Shown here piece by piece: positions 2-6,757 of a stretch of 13,670 nt of DNA. The notes under the pieces are model-generated. The model saw only the letters and a list, made by a program, of their open reading frames with translations, was not told where the DNA came from and searched no databases. The stretch is from a virus (Duplodnaviria; Heunggongvirae; Uroviricota; Caudoviricetes): the IMG/VR virus record IMGVR_UViG_2541047435_000009; one strand, given 5' to 3'. Numbering within the stretch: position 1 is the stretch's first letter; each line of letters opens with the position of its first letter. A program made the position numbers and the translations under genes.

Positions 2-139
2 GGCGTGGATAATGCAACCGGCCCCCGACTGGCAGACACCGCTGAACGGGATTATTTCATCCTCAGAGAACGGTTGATGACAATGCAGAAGCAGCTGGAA
101 GGGGCACAGGACTATATCCGCACTCAGTGCCTGAACTAA
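2..139 (+). CDS. Rz: i-spanin (Rz-like), 3' fragment; 5' end lies upstream of the window
   Basis: Frame 2 reads GVDNATGPRLADTAERDYFILRERLMTMQKQLEGAQDYIRTQCLN*, which closely matches the recalled C-terminus of lambda Rz (...PRLADTAERDYFTLRERLITMQKQLEGTQKYINEQCR). Stop TAA at 137-139. Confidence 0.85.
   Translation, partial: GVDNATGPRLADTAERDYFILRERLMTMQKQLEGAQDYIRTQCLN
3..77 (+). CDS. Rz1: o-spanin (Rz1-like), 3' fragment, embedded in the +1 frame of Rz
   Basis: Frame 3 reads AWIMQPAPDWQTPLNGIISSSENG*, matching the recalled lambda Rz1 C-terminus (AWIMQPPPDWQTPLNGIISPSERG). Stop TGA at 75-77, entirely inside the Rz reading frame. Confidence 0.75.
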   Translation, partial: AWIMQPAPDWQTPLNGIISSSENG

Positions 140-338
140 GTTTTGCTGATGCGCCGTATCGTCACCGTATTCCTGCATTAACAGAGACCGCAGCCAGACA
201 GGGAGACTCCTCTGCGAGAGTGTGCGGGGATAATCAAAAACGATACACACCGGGGTTTACCGCGTTAACGGAGCGCGGTGTTGTCCCCTCATAGTCGCCA
301 GTCCGGTGCGATGGTGGAAGAAACTGGATTTTGTTGCA

Positions 339-369
339 AATGATAACCATTATCATTTTTGCGGGTCCT
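339..369 (+). other. cosQ-like element
   Basis: AATGATAACCATTATCATTTTTGCGGGTCCT resembles the recalled lambda right-end sequence GATGATAATCATTATCACTTTACGGGTCCT, which lies about 30 bp upstream of cosN. Confidence 0.6.
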
Positions 370-390
370 CCTGGTGGGGTGGGCCTGAAC

Positions 391-410
391 ACGGGGCGGG
401 CGGGCGCGGA
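391..410 (+). other. cosN-like terminase nicking site; predicted 12-nt cohesive end about 394-405 (GGGCGGGCGGGC)
   Basis: ACG|GGGCGGGCGGGC|GCGG aligns with lambda ...TTACG|GGGCGGCGACCT|CGCGG at the same spacing from the cosQ-like element; the first six overhang bases (GGGCGG) are identical. Exact nick positions are inferred, not observed. Confidence 0.55.
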
Positions 411-590
411 AAAAGGCGCATTTTTGTGATTTTATCGTCATCATCATCATGATGGTAACTTGTTGTTTTTAATGCTGTTAGTATTAAAAAGATGATGATT
501 GTGGTTGTTTTTTGTTCGACATCTTTATATGGCGGCATTTCTTTACAAAAAAACAGAGTCACTTCTGTTCTGCGGTTTATGTGGAGGGAT
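411..590 (+). promoter_or_regulatory. cosB-like region (candidate terminase small-subunit and IHF binding region)
   Basis: AT-rich stretch between the cosN-like site and the Nu1-like start, with CATCATCATCATGATGG (about 440-456, near-palindrome centred on CATG) and GATGATGATTGTGG (491-504). Position is analogous to lambda cosB; individual sites cannot be assigned by eye. Confidence 0.4.
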
Positions 591-594
591 GTAA

Positions 595-1071
595 ATGGAC
601 GGCGAGCTGAAAAATATGAAGTTAAATATTAATCAACTGGCAGCCCTTTCAGGTCTGCACCGGCAGACTGTTGCCGCCAGAATGGCGGATGTTCCTCTTG
701 CACCAGGCAGTAATGAAAAGAAAAAACTGTATCTCCTGACGGATTTGATAACTTCGTTGCTGGAAAAACCACCATCTTCCGAAGATGAGGATATGGATCC
801 TCACGCTCGTAAGGCATGGTATCAGTCCGAGCGCGAGCGTCTTAAATTTCAGCATGAAACTGTTCAGCTTGTGCCAGTCAGTGATGTCAGGCGGTCCTTT
901 TCTGTCGTGGTGAAAGCGATAGTTCAGGTACTGGAAACCTGGCCTGACCGGCTGGAGAGGGACAGGGGGTGGACTGCATCACAACTGAATGAAGTACAGA
1001 TTGTGGTTGATGAGATCCGCGACACACTGGAAAAGGCAGTCATTGACTGTTGTGATGAGGCCGATATGTGA
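595..1071 (+). CDS. nu1: terminase small subunit (Nu1-like)
   Basis: MKLNINQLAALSG... aligns with the lambda Nu1 N-terminal helix-turn-helix region (MEVNKKQLADIFG...). It is the first gene after cos, and its stop overlaps the large-subunit start (ATGTGA). GGAGGG at 583-588 precedes ATG 595; homology instead suggests ATG 616 as an alternative start. Confidence 0.8.
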   Translation: MDGELKNMKLNINQLAALSGLHRQTVAARMADVPLAPGSNEKKKLYLLTDLITSLLEKPPSSEDEDMDPHARKAWYQSERERLKFQHETVQLVPVSDVRRSFSVVVKAIVQVLETWPDRLERDRGWTASQLNEVQIVVDEIRDTLEKAVIDCCDEADM

Positions 1072-3191
1072 ATCAGGTGAACGAGAGCCATAGCCGCGCA
1101 TCCGATATCTGGCGCGAAGTGGCCTCGCTGTTTCGCCCACCCAGCCGGTTACCAGTAGCGGAAGCCATCAGGCGTTATATGCGGGTTCCACGGGGAGCCA
1201 ATACTTCCGGTCCGTGGGAGTCATCGCTGACGCCCTATATGATTGACCCCATTAATACATTATCAGCCCGTGAATATGACGCGGTGGTGTTTGTGGGACC
1301 TGCGCGAACCGGGAAAACCGAAGGGCTGATTGATGGCTGGATTGTGTACGGCATCATCTGTGATCCGGCGGATATGCTGGTGGTGCAGATGACTGAGACG
1401 AAGGCGCGTGAGCATTCCAGAACGCGTCTTTCCAGGACGTTTCGCCACAGTCCGGAGGTCAGCAAGCGCCTCAGTCCTTCCCGTAATGACAACAACGTCC
1501 ACGATAAAATGTTTCTTGACGGCTCCTTCCTGAAGATTGGCTGGCCGTCGATCACCGTCTTTTCCTCTTCGGATTACCGTCGTGTGGCGCTGACGGATTA
1601 TGACCGTTTCCCTGAAAATGTGGACGGGGAAGGGGATGCCTTCACGCTGGCCTCAAAGCGTACCACCACCTTTATGTCCTCGGGGATGACCCTGGTCGAG
1701 AGTTCACCGGGGCGGGATATCACCGATACCAAATGGCGTTGTGGTGGCGCACATGAGGCACCGCCAACAACGGGGATCCTGTCACTGTATAACCGGGGAG
1801 ACCGCCGCCGGTGGTACTGGCCGTGTCCGCACTGCGGGGAATATTTTCAGCCGGTGATGGATAACATGACCGGATACCGGAATAACCCGGATTTTGTGGC
1901 TGCCGGTCAGGCTGCCCGTCTGATGTGTCCGCATTGTCGCGGGCTGATTGCCCCTGAGCAGAAACGCGAACTGAATAACCAGGGGATCTGGCTTCGTGAA
2001 GGTGAACGGGCGGCGGCGGACGGCAGTATCACCGGAACGCCACGAAACTCCCGGATTGCGTCATTTTGGATGGAGGGGCCAGCTGCGGCGTTTCAGACCT
2101 GGGAACAACTGATTTTTAAACTGCTGGCGGCAGAAGAAGAGTATGAGCGAACCGGCAGTGAAGAGACCCTGAAAGCGGTGGTGAACACCGATATCGGACG
2201 ACCCTATCTGCCCCGTTCAGCCACGGAACAGCGTAAAAGTGAACTGCTTGAACAGCGTGCCGAGCCGTTTCCCCGGCGATCTGTGCCGGATGGTGTGCGT
2301 TTTATTGAGGCAACGGTTGACGTACAGGGCGGTAAAAATCGCCGTTTTGTTGTGCAGATCACCGGATACGGAGAGCAGGGGGAACGCTGGATTGTTGATC
2401 GCTACAACATCCGGCATTCACTGCGCTGCAGTCCCAACGGTGAAAGTCTGCCGGTTGATCCGGCGGCATATCCGGAGGACTGGGATTTGTTGCTGACGGA
2501 TGTGTTCCATAAAACATGGCCGCTGGCTTCTGATCCGGATGTGCGCATGCGTCTGATGGCCATGGCGGTGGATACGGGAGGGGAAGCCGGGGTGACAGAT
2601 AACGCCTATCGTTTCTGGCGTCGTTGCCGGAGTGACGGACTGGGCAACAGGGTGTTTCTGTTCAAGGGGGATGGACTTCGCCGTGACAGGCTGATTAACC
2701 GAACCTTCCCGGATAATACCGGCAGAAGTGCCCGCCGTGCCAGAGCCAGTGGCGATGTCGCGCTGTGGCTGGTTCAGACGGATGCGTTTAAGGATCGTGT
2801 AAATAATGCCCTGTGGCGTGACACACCAGGGCCGAACTATATCCACTTTCCCGACTGGCTGGGGCGGTGGTTTTACGATGAGCTGACCTATGAAGAGCGC
2901 GGCAGTGACGGAAAATGGCGAAAACCGGGCAGGGGCGCTAACGAAGCGTTTGACCTGCTGGTTTATGCGGATGCGCTTGCCGTTCTGCATGGTTACGAAA
3001 AGATCCGCTGGCCCTCCGCACCGGACTGGGCACAGCGGGAAACGTGGCTCGTCTTCCCGCAGGAGCGTTCTGGTGAAACGGTATCCCCGGAACTGACGGC
3101 CGGGGCAGAAAAACGCCGTCGCCGGAAGAAAAAACTGCGGACGGAGCGTGCGGAAGATAATCCATGGATAACATCAGGAGGCTGGTTGTGA
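1068..3191 (+). CDS. A: terminase large subunit (gpA family)
   Basis: 707 aa with a GTG start overlapping the Nu1 stop. The N-terminus (...LFRPP...) matches lambda gpA (...LFRPEP...); Walker A GPARTGKT at 1296-1319; basic C-terminus. Position and size fit a lambda-type terminase ATPase/nuclease. Confidence 0.93.
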   Translation: MNQVNESHSRASDIWREVASLFRPPSRLPVAEAIRRYMRVPRGANTSGPWESSLTPYMIDPINTLSAREYDAVVFVGPARTGKTEGLIDGWIVYGIICDPADMLVVQMTETKAREHSRTRLSRTFRHSPEVSKRLSPSRNDNNVHDKMFLDGSFLKIGWPSITVFSSSDYRRVALTDYDRFPENVDGEGDAFTLASKRTTTFMSSGMTLVESSPGRDITDTKWRCGGAHEAPPTTGILSLYNRGDRRRWYWPCPHCGEYFQPVMDNMTGYRNNPDFVAAGQAARLMCPHCRGLIAPEQKRELNNQGIWLREGERAAADGSITGTPRNSRIASFWMEGPAAAFQTWEQLIFKLLAAEEEYERTGSEETLKAVVNTDIGRPYLPRSATEQRKSELLEQRAEPFPRRSVPDGVRFIEATVDVQGGKNRRFVVQITGYGEQGERWIVDRYNIRHSLRCSPNGESLPVDPAAYPEDWDLLLTDVFHKTWPLASDPDVRMRLMAMAVDTGGEAGVTDNAYRFWRRCRSDGLGNRVFLFKGDGLRRDRLINRTFPDNTGRSARRARASGDVALWLVQTDAFKDRVNNALWRDTPGPNYIHFPDWLGRWFYDELTYEERGSDGKWRKPGRGANEAFDLLVYADALAVLHGYEKIRWPSAPDWAQRETWLVFPQERSGETVSPELTAGAEKRRRRKKKLRTERAEDNPWITSGGWL

Positions 3192-3400: not shown

Positions 3401-4785
3401 TGGCAATTATTGATGATGTGATCGGCGTGTTTTCCCCCGGGTGGAAAGCAGCCAGACTGCGTTCAAGGGCGTTAATCATGGCCTATGAGGCGGTGAAACC
3501 GACCCGGACACATAAAGCCCGGCGGGAAAATCGCTCTGCTGATCAGCTCAGTAAATACGGTGCGGTTTCCCTGCGGGAGCAGGCCCGTTTTCTGGATATC
3601 AATCATGACCTGGTGATTGGTGTGTTTGACAAGCTGGAAGAGCGGGTGATTGGTGCCAGGGGAATTATTGTGGAGCCTCAGCCATTACGAAAAAACGGGG
3701 AAATGGCGGCTGAGCTGGCTGCGGATATCCGCCGTTTGTGGGCTGAATGGTCCGTGAGTCCGGATGTGACAGGGCAGTATACCCGTCCTGTGCTTGAACG
3801 TTTACTGCTGCGGACCTGGCTGCGGGATGGTGAAGTGTTTGCGCAGATGGTCAGTGGTGCGGGAAACGGTCTGGAACGGACGGCGGGAGTGCCATTCTGG
3901 CTTGAGGCGATGGAGCCGGATTTTGTTCCCATGCGCACTGATGAATCCGCCGGACTGAATCAGGGGGTTTTTCTTGATGAGTGGGGAAGACCGAAAAAAT
4001 ATCTGGTTTATAAAAATTATCCGGTCAGCGGCCGGCAGAGTGATACGAAAGAAATCGCTGCCGGAAAAATGATCCACCTGAAGTTCACTCGTCGTCTGCA
4101 TCAGACGCGAGGCTCATCCATGTTATCGGGGGTGCTGATGCGGATCAGTGCCCTTAAGGAGTATGAGGATGCGGAACTGACAGCGGCGCGTATTGCTGCG
4201 GCGCTGGGACTGTATATCCGTAAAGGTGACGGACAGGACTATGAAGATCCGGGGATCCGCAACGGCCAGTTGCGTGCAGTGGCAGCAGGCAGTCGTCTGA
4301 GTTTTTCCAGTGCGGCGCGTAACTATAACGGCACCTACAGCGCCCAGCGGCAGGAGCTGGTCGAGTCCACGGATGGTTACCTGATCCTGCAGGACTGTTT
4401 TATTGGCGCGGTAACCCGCCCGGTGTACCGGACATGGCTGAATATGGTGGTTGCGGCAGGTCTGCTGAAAATTCCGGCGGATGTGGAGATGAAAACGCTA
4501 TATAACGCGACGTATTCCGGTCCGGTGATGCCGTGGATCGACCCGGTTAAGGAAGCTGAAGCCTGGAGAATTCAGATCCGGGGTGGTGCAGCGACAGAAT
4601 CTGACTGGGTGCGTGCCGGTGGGCGCAATCCGGATGAGGTCAAACGTCGCCGCAAGGCTGAAATTGATGAAAACAGCAGACTGGGGCTGGTCTTTGATAC
4701 TGACCCCGTCAACGACAAAGGAGGCAACAGTGCCGGAACTGAACGACAGTATCAGCGCGACACCGAAAGCCAGCATGAAGAATAA
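3400..4785 (+). CDS. B: portal protein (lambda gpB family)
   Basis: 461-aa ORF directly after W (TAATG stop/start overlap; GAGG 5 nt upstream). Size and position fit a lambda-family portal. Assignment rests mainly on synteny and general portal-like composition. Confidence 0.85.
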   Translation: MAIIDDVIGVFSPGWKAARLRSRALIMAYEAVKPTRTHKARRENRSADQLSKYGAVSLREQARFLDINHDLVIGVFDKLEERVIGARGIIVEPQPLRKNGEMAAELAADIRRLWAEWSVSPDVTGQYTRPVLERLLLRTWLRDGEVFAQMVSGAGNGLERTAGVPFWLEAMEPDFVPMRTDESAGLNQGVFLDEWGRPKKYLVYKNYPVSGRQSDTKEIAAGKMIHLKFTRRLHQTRGSSMLSGVLMRISALKEYEDAELTAARIAAALGLYIRKGDGQDYEDPGIRNGQLRAVAAGSRLSFSSAARNYNGTYSAQRQELVESTDGYLILQDCFIGAVTRPVYRTWLNMVVAAGLLKIPADVEMKTLYNATYSGPVMPWIDPVKEAEAWRIQIRGGAATESDWVRAGGRNPDEVKRRRKAEIDENSRLGLVFDTDPVNDKGGNSAGTERQYQRDTESQHEE

Positions 4786-6757
4786 ATCCTGGTTCAGGAT
4801 GCAAGCTGGGGGGCCGGGTGACGCGGATATTTATATTTATGACGAGATTGGTTTCTGGGGAGTTACCGCGAAGCAGTTTGTCAGCGAACTGAATGCACTG
4901 GGTGATATCACCCACATTAATCTCCATATCAATTCACCGGGTGGCGATGTCTTTGAAGGCATCGCCATTTTTAATGCCCTGAAAAATCAGGGGGCGACCA
5001 TTACCGTGTATGTGGATGGCGTTGCCGCCTCGATGGCATCTGTGATTGCGATGGCCGGTGATACGGTCATTATGCCGGAAAATGCCTTCATGATGATCCA
5101 TAAGCCATGGGGATTCAGTGGCGGGGATGCTGAGGATATGCGCAGTTATGCCGATTTGCTGGATAAAGTCGAATCGGTACTGTTGCCAGCCTATGCGCAG
5201 AAAACCGGAAAAACCACCGATGAAATTGCTGCCATGCTGGCGGATGAGACCTGGATGTCCGGTGCCGAATGTCTGGCACATGGATTTGCTGATCAGGTGA
5301 CGCCAGCCGTTAAGGCAATGGCATGTATTCAGTCAAAACGTACAGAGGAATTTAAAAAGATGCCGGAATCCATTCGAAACATGATTACTCCGCCACGCAA
5401 CAGTGCTCCACGCGTACAGGATGATGGACCTGCAGCCTCCCGGACGCCAGTGCAGGCAGCAGCACCTGTGGTGGATGAAAACAGTATCCGTGCGCAGGTA
5501 CTGGCAGAGCAAAAAGCGCGTGTAAACGGTATTAATGATCTGTTTGCCATGTTTGGCGGGCGTTATCAGACGCTGCAGGCTCAGTGTCTTGCCGATCCTG
5601 AATGTTCGCTGGAGCAGGCCCGCGAAAAGCTGTTGAACGAGATGGGGCGCGAGTCCACGCCATCTAATAAAAATACCCCGGCTCATATTTATGCCGGAAA
5701 CGGTAATTTTGTGGGGGATGGGATCCGCCAGGCGCTGATGGCGCGTGCCGGATTTGAAAAAACCGAACGTGATAATGTCTACAACGGGATGACCCTGCGT
5801 GAATATGCCCGTATGTCACTGACTGAACGGGGTATTGGGGTTTCCAGTTATAACCCGATGCAGATGGTCGGTGCGGCGTTCACACACAGTACGTCTGACT
5901 TCGGTAATATTCTGCTGGATGTTGCGAACAAAGCCATTCTGCAGGGCTGGGAAGATGCCCCTGAAACCTATGAACAGTGGACGCGGAAAGGTCAGTTGTC
6001 TGATTTTAAAATTGCCCATCGTGTGGGTATGGGGGGCTTCAGTGCTCTGCGTCAGGTGCGTGAAGGGGCGGAATATAAATACGTCACCACCGGAGATAAA
6101 CAGGCCACTATTGCACTGGCGACCTATGGCGAGCTGTTCAGTATCACCCGTCAGGCCATTATCAATGATGATCTGAATATGCTGACCGATGTCCCGATGA
6201 AACTGGGCCGTGCGGCGAAATCCACTATTGCCGATCTGGTTTATGCCATTCTGACGTCTAACCCGAAAATCTCCACAGATAATGTAAGTCTGTTCGATAA
6301 AGCGAAACATGCAAACGTACTGGAGAGCGCTGCAATGGACGTGGCATCGCTGGATAAAGCCCGCCAGTTGATGCGCGTTCAGAAAGAGGGGGAGCGTCAT
6401 CTGAATATTCGTCCTGCGTTCGTACTGGTACCGACGGCGATGGAGTCTGTTGCTAACCAGGTCATTCGCTCCTCAAGTGTCAAGGGGGCTGACATTAACG
6501 CCGGTATTATTAACCCGGTGAAAGATTTTGCGACCGTTATTGCAGAGCCTCGTCTTGATGATAACAGCCAGACCACCTTCTACCTGGCTGCGTCAAAAGG
6601 CTCCGATACGATTGAAGTGGCTTATCTCAACGGTGTGGATACGCCATATATTGATCAGATGGAGGGCTTCAGTGTGGATGGCGTGACAACGAAAGTGCGT
6701 ATTGACGCCGGTGTCGCGCCAGTTGATCACCGCGGTCTGGTGAAATGTACGGCGTAA
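4730..6757 (+). CDS. fused prohead protease (ClpP/S14-like) and major capsid protein
   Basis: The N-terminal part has ClpP-like motifs (GVAASMAS serine motif, MIHKPWG histidine motif); the C-terminal roughly 330 aa resemble an HK97-fold capsid domain; a Q/E/A-rich linker lies between. Start chosen at GTG 4730, 5 nt downstream of a strong AAGGAGG (4717-4724); alternatives are ATG 4775 and ATG 4799. Overlaps the portal 3' end. Confidence 0.85.
   Translation: MPELNDSISATPKASMKNKSWFRMQAGGPGDADIYIYDEIGFWGVTAKQFVSELNALGDITHINLHINSPGGDVFEGIAIFNALKNQGATITVYVDGVAASMASVIAMAGDTVIMPENAFMMIHKPWGFSGGDAEDMRSYADLLDKVESVLLPAYAQKTGKTTDEIAAMLADETWMSGAECLAHGFADQVTPAVKAMACIQSKRTEEFKKMPESIRNMITPPRNSAPRVQDDGPAASRTPVQAAAPVVDENSIRAQVLAEQKARVNGINDLFAMFGGRYQTLQAQCLADPECSLEQAREKLLNEMGRESTPSNKNTPAHIYAGNGNFVGDGIRQALMARAGFEKTERDNVYNGMTLREYARMSLTERGIGVSSYNPMQMVGAAFTHSTSDFGNILLDVANKAILQGWEDAPETYEQWTRKGQLSDFKIAHRVGMGGFSALRQVREGAEYKYVTTGDKQATIALATYGELFSITRQAIINDDLNMLTDVPMKLGRAAKSTIADLVYAILTSNPKISTDNVSLFDKAKHANVLESAAMDVASLDKARQLMRVQKEGERHLNIRPAFVLVPTAMESVANQVIRSSSVKGADINAGIINPVKDFATVIAEPRLDDNSQTTFYLAASKGSDTIEVAYLNGVDTPYIDQMEGFSVDGVTTKVRIDAGVAPVDHRGLVKCTA

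Follow-up and report, generated by a model that had tools for sequence, protein, structure and literature searches.

Phage lambda packages its DNA from a composite site, cos, which is made up of cosQ, cosN and cosB and is served by the terminase subunits gpNu1 and gpA. Feiss and co-workers have described a rule for cosN in lambda-like phages: cosQ, base pairs 1-6 and the CG flanks are conserved and base pairs 7-12 are free, a pattern already published for N15, Gifsy-1 and phiD326 (PMC4669245). The 7-bp cosQ is itself highly conserved (PMC4669245). In these three phages, base pairs 7-12 drift so that two or three positions differ from lambda, and exactly 12 nt lie between the CG flanks. The cos of Gram-negative PICIs retains cosQ, cosN and their spacing and has an unrelated cosB (Fillol-Salom 2019, PMC6739421; Murialdo & Feiss 2022, PMC9026076). 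There rpp comes next, with no terminase genes.

A second set of relatives consists of phages whose small terminase (TerS) belongs to the DUF1441 family. A putative cos, GGGCGGCGCGCT, has been given for mEp213/LLS (PMC12315714), and in mEp460, cdtI and Tritos the putative overhang is GGGCGGGAGCGT. The cdtI and Tritos records start with GGGCGGGAGCGT/CGCGG (a slash marks a nick; GGGCGG is homologous) and end in CACG, and that of Hafnia phage yong2 starts with CGCGGG. In the records of cdtI, Tritos and LLS, cos may have been placed by inference rather than by measurement; the Ayreon paper states that its opening is arbitrary. The mEp213 and mEp460 records open at the terS ATG and are uninformative on the ends. 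A Stx phage with a PhageTerm-mapped cos (PMC7946995) was rejected as a comparator, being an unrelated 3'-cos phage.

Here we analyse a 13,670-nt stretch of viral DNA (IMG/VR record IMGVR_UViG_2541047435_000009), which we call the window. It comes from a prophage of the VT1-Sakai (Sp15) type, to which it is 99.8% identical (AP000400.1). The original prediction placed a lambda-like cos with a diverged cohesive end between Rz and the small-terminase gene. Both neighbours proved to be as described (Table 1), and the reading as a lambda-type cos is supported by position, cosQ, the left half of cosN with its CG flank, the diverged right half, a gpA-family large terminase (TerL) and the layout of cosB. 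We consider it highly probable that positions ~363-526 are the cos (cosQ-cosN-cosB) of this VT1-Sakai/Sp15-type lambdoid Stx prophage, lambda-like in its working. Identity, synteny, family-wide conservation and protein families were all observed directly.

Table 1. Features of the cos region and its neighbours, in window coordinates; bp are counted from the predicted top-strand nick.
Feature	Position	Strand	Basis or remark
Rz (spanin/endopeptidase) 3' end, last lysis gene	2-139	+	AP000400.1 annotation; stop codon 137-139
AT-rich palindrome AAATGATAA-CCA-TTATCATTT	338-358		inverted repeat; outside cosQ proper
cosQ GGGTCCT (packaging-termination subsite)	363-369	+	= lambda 48473-48479; nearly invariant in 51 distinct subfamily sequences
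cosQ-cosN spacer CCTGGTGGGGTGGGCCTGAAC	370-390	+	21 nt; lambda 20 nt, mEp460/cdtI type 19 nt
cosN	392-408		left flank CG 392-393; predicted top-strand nick between 393 and 394
Invariant right flank CGCGGAAAAAGGCGCATTTTTGTGATTTTAT (A5-N6-T5 motif), between cosN and first candidate TerS site	405-433	+	(near-)invariant in 51 distinct subfamily sequences
R3-like candidate TerS site ATCGTCATCATCATCAT	434-450	+	bp 41-57 from nick; lambda R3 bp 50-65; subfamily-invariant
IHF-like site AAACAACAAGTTA	456-468	-	1 mismatch vs WATCAANNNNTTR; weak consensus match; between R3-like and R2-like repeats
R2-like inverted copy AAAAAGATGATGAT	486-499	-	bp 93-106; subfamily-invariant
Last conserved cos block TTTTTGTTCGACATCTTT	509-526	+	beyond 526 sequences diverge into different contexts
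terS, small terminase, 158 aa, DUF1441 family	595-1071	+	Pfam PF07278 E 3.8e-48; LC567842 annotation = terminase small subunit
terL, large terminase, lambda gpA family (ATPase + endonuclease domains)	1068-3191	+	PF05876 E 1.8e-81; PF20454 E 6.2e-84

On the prophage map the element (363-526) sits at the junction of the lysis and head genes, just upstream of terS; the 3' end of Rz forms the left edge of the intergenic region that carries it. Downstream comes a complete module of terS, terL, portal and protease-capsid, so this is the cos of a phage and not of a PICI satellite. Of 5426 complete E. coli genomes, 757 (~14%) carry the region, 289 of them at an identity of at least 99%. GenBank AP000400 and RefSeq carry no cos feature here, and they list TerS only as 'hypothetical' or 'DUF1441 family protein'.

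How closely does the site match lambda? A block, ATGATAACCATTATCATTTTTGCGGGTCCT, occupies positions 340-369, ACG follows at 391-393 and GGGCGGGCGGGC directly after it at 394-405. Aligned to the right-end/left-end junction of lambda (J02459), the block matches positions 48451-48479 at 26 of 30 positions with one 1-nt gap (E 3e-5, in a small search space). The whole block had been likened to the lambda cosQ region. The match to lambda and the exact GGGTCCT bear this out in part; only these 7 bp, found also in >100 related cos sites, are cosQ, and the AT-rich palindrome to their left is not conserved in the family. At cosN, ACG/GGGCGG (ACGGGGCGG, 391-399) is identical to lambda in 9 of 9 positions. 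The spacing is lambda-like, as predicted: from the end of cosQ to the predicted top-strand nick it is 24 nt, one more than the 23 nt of lambda. The overhang begins 5'-GGGCGG (394-399), as in lambda, and continues GCGGG(C)(G); positions 1-6 equal those of lambda and positions 7-12 differ in all six (GCGGGC vs CGACCT), again as foreseen.

Taken as a composite motif, GGGTCCT-N15-30-ACGGGGCGG has a single occurrence in the window, and none of 200 dinucleotide-preserving shuffles contains it. A likeness so far beyond chance makes it extremely improbable that the resemblance is incidental, that is, that the region is a Fur-regulated promoter/terminator or an sRNA gene in a phage that packages by headful from a pac site. 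Such a reading would also have to account for a TerL of the gpA (5'-cos) family and for the conservation of cosQ, cosN and cosB as one unit upstream of terS genes. It draws on the palindrome, which matches a Fur box (GATAATGATAATCATTATC) at 16 of 19 positions, and on an Rfam search of positions 1-1200 that returned a single sub-threshold match, to PrrF, an sRNA regulated by Fur (20.5 bits, E 0.96; gathering score 90). No Rfam family reached threshold, no terminator was found, and promoter-like sites were not in excess (one against 0.6 expected). RNA folding of the conserved block at 140-337 gave z-scores of only -0.15 and -0.47.

The palindrome is shared with lambda (48451-48466, one mismatch) and with mEp213, and the expected count of ATGATAATCATTATCA at up to two mismatches is 0.01. 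Lambda attains the same 16/19 Fur-box score. Other family members have a GC hairpin followed by T6, or other hairpins, at this position. A Fur box beside cosQ would add to the function of cos and would not replace it.

Conservation across the family follows the published rule. Scans of IMG/VR recovered >200 loci with the layout GGGTCCT-N19-21-ACG/GGGCGG-N6-CGC. Among >100 related cos sites, cosQ and the left half CG/GGGCGG are held in common and the right half varies freely; the left half with its CG flank is kept in all family members sampled. Outside the subfamily to which the window belongs, CGC lies exactly 12 nt after the nick in 97 of 108 distinct sites, which present 16 different 12-mers, every one with GGGCGG. 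The same scan recovered overhangs of the N15 type (GGGCGGCGTCCG) and of the Gifsy-1 type (GGGCGGCAGCGT). Natural cosN variants of lambda-like phages are reportedly also the subject of Vahanian et al. 2017 (Virology 509:140). In the subfamily, represented by 51 distinct sequences, positions 363-399 and 405-526 are almost invariant and the contexts upstream and downstream are mosaic.

Divergence of the right half is therefore expected rather than surprising, since a conserved first half with a free second half has already been published (PMC4669245). The differing sticky-end sequence is an ordinary, already described kind of variation. Unlike that of lambda, the predicted overhang of the window consists entirely of G and C. 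Two features set it apart from the described variants: it has no base in common with lambda at positions 7-12, and the distance between the flanks varies within the subfamily (12, 13 or 14 nt), unlike the constant 12 nt of N15, phiD326 and Gifsy-1. Searched for in the literature, the overhang GGGCGGGCGGGC itself led only to papers on G-quadruplexes and aptamers, none on phages.

To the right of cosN, positions 405-526 appear to form a conserved cosB laid out as in lambda, with R3-like, IHF-like and inverted R2-like elements at lambda-like distances. We infer that TerS binds at the R-like repeats. The R3-like candidate is the left arm of two inverted repeats, and motifs of the type GTCATCA(T/C)C stand at the matching place in mEp213, mEp460 and yong2. 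Within these arms lies a perfect 9-bp inverted repeat: ATCATCATC (440-448) and GATGATGAT (491-499) are reverse complements at 9 of 9 positions, with 42 nt between them. Lambda R2 is likewise inverted relative to R3 (PMC9026076). The IHF-like site overlaps the invariant TTGTTTTTAA (463-472), and the I1 region of lambda has an equivalent one-mismatch IHF match on the same strand at bp 79-91. The last conserved block is a possible R1-like site, a weak consensus match (CGACATCTT vs CGTCATCAT). The terS ATG lies at bp 202 from the nick, compared with bp 191 in lambda. The R-site sequences themselves are unrelated to those of lambda.

Closer counterparts are found in mEp213/LLS, mEp460, cdtI, Tritos and yong2. 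These phages share with the window cosQ, the CGCGG-A5-N6-T5 flank, a G-rich spacer that is similar (CCCGGTGGGGTGGCCTGCC) and GTCATCA-type cosB repeats; the right flank CGCGGAAAAAGGCGCATTTTTGTGATTTTAT is homologous to CGCGGAAAAAGGCTAGTTTTT of mEp460, cdtI and Tritos. TerS identity is 50-57% for the mEp213 and mEp460 groups and yong2 and 38% for cdtI and Tritos. They differ in having a 19-nt spacer and an overhang interval of exactly 12 nt, whereas the window's subfamily has a 21-nt spacer and a shorter interval of variable length before CGCGG.

Both terminase genes are intact. TerL aligns with lambda gpA over its full length (BLASTP: 24% identity, 675 columns, E 1e-18). TerS falls in the Pfam family DUF1441 and not in Phage_Nu1, and BLASTP gave no alignment with lambda Nu1. 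A profile alignment (hhalign) of its family with Nu1-type TerS alignments is collinear over 137 columns and starts at the HTH region (probability 69.6%, E 4e-5), and a PDB profile search gave a weak match of the N-terminus to an HTH regulator (E 0.077). TerS may thus be a remote, collinear relative of Nu1, a homology resting on the 70%-probability profile alignment.

How might this terminase act on the site? Protein-DNA contacts, nick positions and overhang length we infer by analogy with lambda. TerS would bind the inverted ATCATCATC/GATGATGAT repeats of cosB (434-450 and 486-499), probably over an IHF-type bend at ~456-472, and would thereby place two copies of the gpA-family TerL on cosN. 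One copy would nick the top strand after ACG, between 393 and 394, in the lambda-identical half-site CG/GGGCGG; the second, anchored by cosB, would nick the bottom strand about one helical turn to the right. Packaging would then proceed rightward into the head genes and end at the next cos, where cosQ GGGTCCT (363-369) would be required. On this scheme the left end of virion DNA would start 5'-GGGCGGGCGGG.

For phages with near-identical cos sites, packaging is documented in the literature. The Stx2a phages of E. coli O145:H28 strain 12E129 (LC567841 and LC567842) do not differ from the window in cosQ, cosN, cosB or terS and have a single substitution, in the spacer between cosQ and cosN; once they are induced, their DNA resists DNase (PMC8112680). 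Treatment with mitomycin C likewise leads to packaging of Sp15 DNA (PMC2669165). Sp15 has defects in head-formation and recombination genes, and its packaging may depend on other prophages, since its head formation is described as defective (PMC2669165). These defects, the degradation of many O157 prophages and the violation of the CG-flank/12-nt rule by the window's register would suit a decaying relic, recognisable by descent and no longer cut, for example through inactivation by the extra G in cosN. We think this very unlikely. About 35% of subfamily loci share this register, spread over several versions of the sequence, which marks it as old and maintained; terS and terL are intact; and the inducible 12E129 phages with identical cosN and cosB are packaged, as is Sp15 DNA (PMC8112680; PMC2669165). 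Published physical mapping of the ends was found neither for this phage nor for any subfamily member, and all deposited subfamily phage genomes are in prophage coordinates, none opened at cos.

The functional cos that we favour leaves a choice of overhang length. The conserved nick flanks of the subfamily stand 12, 13 (as in the window) or 14 nt apart (0, +1 or +2), although TerL is 100% identical and TerS up to 100%. From position 13 after the left nick, the sequence reads CGGAA at 16 sites, GCGGA at 14, and CGCGG and CGGGA at one each. In the commonest form, ACG/GGGCGGGCGGCG/CGGAAAAA, 12 nt and the CG flanks coincide. The window has one extra G in the interval; its positions 13-14 are GC, and CG comes after 11 or after 13 nt. 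Unlike in lambda, a 12-nt overhang and two CG flanks cannot both hold, the right flank being 1 nt out of register. Because this register is polymorphic in the subfamily, 13 and 11 nt are live alternatives to 12.

The likeliest single option, to which we would give slightly less than an even chance, is a 12-nt overhang, GGGCGGGCGGGC, with the bottom strand nicked after position 405. The right nick would then be flanked by GC in place of the 'highly conserved' CG (PMC4669245), so that one of the two rules, CG flanks or 12 nt, must give way.

A 13-nt end (5'-GGGCGGGCGGGCG) is a substantial possibility, though we lean against it. The bottom strand would be nicked after 406 and each nuclease would cut beside its own CG flank, with ACG on the left and CGGAAAAA, held at a set distance from cosB, on the right; the additional G would lengthen the overhang and leave the nick unshifted. 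The window is indeed the commonest 12-nt sibling form plus one G inside the interval, and neither the right flank nor the interval between it and the R3-like repeat varies across the subfamily. TerS at R3 is believed to anchor the bottom-strand nick in lambda, where the CG flanks are conserved (PMC4669245, PMC9026076). Nor is length fixed in the wider terminase family. Cyanophage Cr-LKS3, whose TerS is 32% identical and whose TerL is lambda-like, has an overhang that also starts GGGC between CG flanks at both nicks, and its 5' ends have been mapped to 9 nt (GGGCTCGCG; PMC9303873). The host and genome of Cr-LKS3 are unrelated, and it serves here only to show that overhangs in this terminase lineage need not be 12 nt long. 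Against 13 nt, every recognisable site outside the subfamily (97 of 97) has a spacing of 12 nt, suggesting that the TerL pair is geometrically constrained. Moreover, TerL 100% identical to the window's pairs with both 12-type and 13-type cosN, so one enzyme would need two staggers.

We regard an 11-nt end (5'-GGGCGGGCGGG), with the bottom-strand nick after 404 and immediately 5' of CGCGG, as distinctly unlikely. Its nick would sit where the homologous right nick sits in lambda, mEp213, cdtI, Tritos and yong2: in lambda and the DUF1441-TerS relatives, CGCGG(A/G)AA comes straight after the 12-nt overhang, and the yong2 record opens exactly at CGCGGG. CGCGG lies 35 nt from cosQ, just as it does in lambda, and the variable positions of the subfamily extend right up to CGCGG. 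The cost is that the commonest subfamily variant would have a 10-nt end, and most members would depart from an otherwise universal 12 nt. The only contig found to end inside cosN stops 10 nt after the nick, where a draft assembly breaks off in a repeat rich in homopolymers. We rejected it as a proxy for a physical end, because draft assemblies break where the cos sites of co-resident prophages diverge and this contig contains homopolymer errors.

The one aspect of broader mechanistic interest is the 12/13/14 register polymorphism. Occurring as it does with an identical terminase, it is an experiment of nature on whether, in lambda-type terminases, the enzyme fixes the nick spacing or the site directs it. 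If the nicks follow the flanks, which we think somewhat unlikely, sibling phages sharing one terminase would have ends of different length, with the stagger set by the DNA site. Co-resident prophages would then carry sticky ends of incompatible length. This could be a barrier to cos-mediated exchange within the O157 prophage pool or, alternatively, a diversifier of such exchange driven by mismatch repair.

An unannotated and very common element now has a name and coordinates. Knowing the cos helps in opening phage genome assemblies correctly and in reading the read-start pile-ups of induced lysates. Together with its specificity determinants, it should help to predict which O157/EHEC prophages package by means of each other's terminases, a question that bears on the mobilisation of stx and effector genes.

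We joined both ends of lambda (J02459) and aligned them to window positions 201-620. The sequence ATGATAACCATTATCATTTTTGCGGGTCCT (340-369) agrees with lambda 48451-48479 at 26 of 30 positions, with one gap, and within it GGGTCCT (363-369) is identical to the 7-bp cosQ of lambda (48473-48479). Downstream, ACGGGGCGG (391-399) matches the lambda right-end/left-end junction at nine of nine positions. The nick lies 24 nt from cosQ (23 in lambda), so the lambda-like spacing and the parallel placement of ACG before the cut, both part of the original prediction, are borne out. So is the division of the overhang into a half shared with lambda (GGGCGG) and a half that differs: the next six bases, GCGGGC in the window and CGACCT in lambda, have no position in common. 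The prediction left it to be checked whether this resemblance exceeds chance. The window contains a single copy of the composite GGGTCCT-N15-30-ACGGGGCGG, and 200 dinucleotide-preserving shuffles yielded no copy; the palindrome near cosQ is likewise unexpected by chance. The site lies between Rz and the small-terminase gene, as claimed, and the sequence observation as a whole holds as written.

The AT-rich palindrome at 338-358, counted in the original prediction as part of the cosQ region, is not conserved in the family: directly before cosQ, other members carry GC-rich hairpins with T6 after them, or other hairpins. This palindrome matches the Fur-box consensus GATAATGATAATCATTATC at 16 of 19 positions, as does lambda J02459 at 48447-48465. 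Within 45 nt upstream of cosQ, 54 of the 134 distinct cos contexts of lambda type have a match of at least 15/19, and their flanks are diverged. A literature search found no paper tying a Fur box to cosQ. The palindrome may serve as an input for host iron or as a roadblock where the late operon meets cos; alternatively, it may be no more than inherited sequence.

Bases 1-620 of the window are 99.8% identical to VT1-Sakai (Sp15), the Stx1 prophage of E. coli O157:H7 Sakai (AP000400.1), whose annotation has no cos feature. In terL, Pfam recognizes the gpA ATPase (E ~1e-81) and gpA endonuclease (E ~1e-84); downstream lie a portal of the lambda family and a fusion of ClpP and capsid. The region 330-600 is present in 757 of 5426 complete E. 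coli genomes, at 99% identity or more in 289, and in these TerS is labelled only 'DUF1441 family protein'.

Coordinates of features at and around the predicted cos site
Feature	Window position	bp from nick	Remarks
Rz	ends at 139		AP000400.1 annotation
Right flank CGCGGAAAAAGGCGCATTTTTGTGATTTTAT	405-433		invariant in subfamily alignment
ATCGTCATCATCATCAT, R3-like candidate	434-450	41-57	
IHF-like site	456-468	63-75	minus strand; 1 mismatch to consensus
Inverted copy AAAAAGATGATGAT, R2-like candidate	486-499	93-106	9/9 complementary to 440-448
TTTTTGTTCGACATCTTT	509-526	116-133	last conserved block
terS (small terminase)	595-1071		'hypothetical protein' in AP000400.1; Pfam DUF1441, E 3.8e-48
terL	1068-3191		'terminase large subunit, similar to lambda A' in AP000400.1

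Between Rz and the palindrome, 140-337 is a block of about 200 nt without an annotated gene. It is 91-97% conserved in many Stx phages and recognisable in mEp460; it has no Rfam match, and its folding on either strand resembles that of shuffles (z -0.15, -0.47).

IMG/VR was scanned for the general motif and for a version specific to the window's subfamily (a group of EHEC-prophage cos sites), each yielding at least 120 loci. Outside the subfamily, 97 of 108 distinct sites among the matches listed consist, in this order, of GGGTCCT, a spacer of 18-21 nt (19-20 in nearly all), ACG, the nick, GGGCGG, six variable bases and CGC. They carry 16 different 12-mers among the matches listed; those found include the overhangs of lambda itself and of the N15 (GGGCGGCGTCCG) and Gifsy-1 (GGGCGGCAGCGT) types. 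Lambda-like cos variation is reportedly the subject of a dedicated survey by Vahanian et al. in 2017. Lambda-like phages conserve cosQ, bp 1-6 of the overhang and the nick-flanking CG, and bp 7-12 drift, because TerL nicking the right half is anchored by cosB-bound TerS (Feiss and colleagues, PMC4669245; PMC9026076). In layout, these IMG/VR sites follow exactly this published pattern.

Two main families of first ORFs lie 3' of the listed sites, Nu1-type and DUF1441-type, with 41 distinct sequences each. Among these sites the Nu1-type ORFs mostly accompany the lambda overhang; the DUF1441-type ORFs never do, and occur with 11 different right halves. BLASTP of the DUF1441 TerS against Nu1 gave no alignment, and a PDB profile search with TerS gave a marginal HTH match at the N-terminus only. 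Despite the silence of BLASTP, the two families are collinear over 137 columns in profile-profile comparison (probability 69.6%, E 4e-5), which suggests that the DUF1441 TerS is probably a distant relative of Nu1.

Across 51 distinct aligned sequences of the subfamily, 363-399 and 405-526 are nearly invariant, and these segments are joined to at least three unrelated upstream and at least three downstream contexts. A conserved core with changing flanks is what marks a functional module. An invariant TTGTTTTTAA overlaps the IHF-like site, and the terS ATG lies at bp 202 from the nick. Lambda has the TerS-binding repeat R3 at 50-65, the IHF site I1 at about 79-91, an inverted R2, R1, and Nu1 at 191 (PMC9026076). 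The order and distances of the R3-, IHF- and R2-like elements match these, and the logic of cosB therefore appears lambda-like, whereas its sequence is unrelated. The latter would fit a different TerS specificity.

Stx2a phages of strain 12E129 (LC567841, LC567842) are identical to the window in cosQ, cosN, cosB and terS and differ by a single spacer substitution, and their DNA turns DNase-resistant upon induction (Nakamura et al., PMC8112680). Packaged Sp15 DNA has been detected after mitomycin C; Sp15 has head-formation defects, and other prophages may help its packaging (Asadulghani et al., PMC2669165). As deposited, the records of cdtI and Tritos, more distant phages with a DUF1441 TerS, start GGGCGGGAGCGT/CGCGG and end in CACG, and that of Hafnia phage yong2 starts at CGCGGG; these openings are homologous to the predicted nicks. 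The mEp460_4F5 record (LR595868.1; L240/L241) begins 5 nt upstream of the predicted nick. Its junction reads CCACG/GGGCGGGAGCG/CGGAAAAA, the cosN being 3 nt shorter than that of mEp460 (GGGCGGGAGCGGCG/CGG). The shortening is either a further case of natural length variation or an artefact that arose when the junction of the cohesive ends was assembled.

In the window's subfamily the cosQ-cosN spacer is 21 nt, and the interval from the nick after ACG to the invariant CGGAAAAA is variable. Among the loci listed it is 12 nt in 69 (commonest form GGGCGGGCGGCG), 13 nt in 38 (the window's GGGCGGGCGGGCG and four other versions) and 14 nt in 3. A TerS 100% identical to the window's occurs with the 13-nt interval in 12 of the loci listed and with the 12-nt interval in 5; TerL is 99.7-100% identical across the two. 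In the 12- and 14-nt types a 12-nt overhang is followed by the canonical CG; in the 13-nt type GC follows 12 nt, and CG comes after 11 or 13. Where, then, would the second nick fall? The enzyme may fix a 12-nt stagger and tolerate the right flank, a reading that agrees with the mutation-insensitive right half in lambda and that we hold tentatively, as just short of probable. That the nicks instead track the flanks, leaving a 13-nt overhang, is possible if doubtful; this agrees with nicking that is anchored by R3 at 47 +/- 2 bp (Higgins & Becker, as cited in PMC9026076) and with Cr-LKS3, which belongs distantly to the same TerS lineage and whose mapped ends are 9 nt long (PMC9303873). A right nick just before CGCGG, homologous to lambda, cdtI and yong2, would leave 11 nt and seems improbable. 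The GTCATCA repeat lies 43-46 bp from the left nick in the various family members; the window's 44 is mid-range, so this spacing separates none of the three. A site-directed, variable stagger in this subfamily is rather unlikely. The only contig found to end inside cosN (L169) was rejected as evidence on ends.

The top strand around cosN (373-408) is predicted to be strongly G-quadruplex-prone (GGGG-T-GGG ... GGGG-C-GGG-C-GGG). A literature search on the predicted 12-mer, (GGGC)3, returned the G4-forming aptamer T40214, (GGGC)4, of which it is three quarters.

A group of Stx1a phages, such as Stx1_9793 (LC645428.1, L248 ~1070-1400), has Rz to cosQ in common with the window at about 93% identity and switches exactly after GGGTCCT (369/370): from there on, the spacer, cosN (GGGCGGCGACCT) and cosB are genuinely those of lambda, and Nu1 is nearly so. 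It follows that cosQ marks a recombination joint of the mosaic, at which the lysis module meets alternative packaging modules. Pairs of cos sites in tandem, 2.54 kb apart on the same strand, occur in IMG/VR loci L141 (reverse strand, ~10176 and ~12715), L117, L161 and L169 among those listed. Between them lie two separate genes, one for a protease of the ClpP type (199 aa) and one for a protein of the Phage_capsid_4 family (430 aa). In the window the two domains, a ClpP-type prohead protease and a major capsid protein, are fused in one 724-aa ORF (4583-6757; Pfam). Such fusions are known from Gifsy-2-like heads (PMC12315714). At the first tandem site cosB is of another kind (GGCACCATCACCACCAC), and a 75-aa ORF without a Pfam match, the protease and the capsid come after it; the second has the window's cosB type, and the first ORF after it is 93 aa. 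The unit might represent a duplication or a capsid cassette like that of a satellite.

On the features that sequence can test, the site is predicted to work like lambda cos, the 12-nt/CG-flank register and a Nu1-type TerS aside. That the overhang diverges in its second half is known and expected of a lambda-like cosN. The new elements are limited to an explicit account of this very common EHEC-prophage cos with its cosB and, as far as we found in the reachable literature, a polymorphism of inter-nick length with identical terminase.
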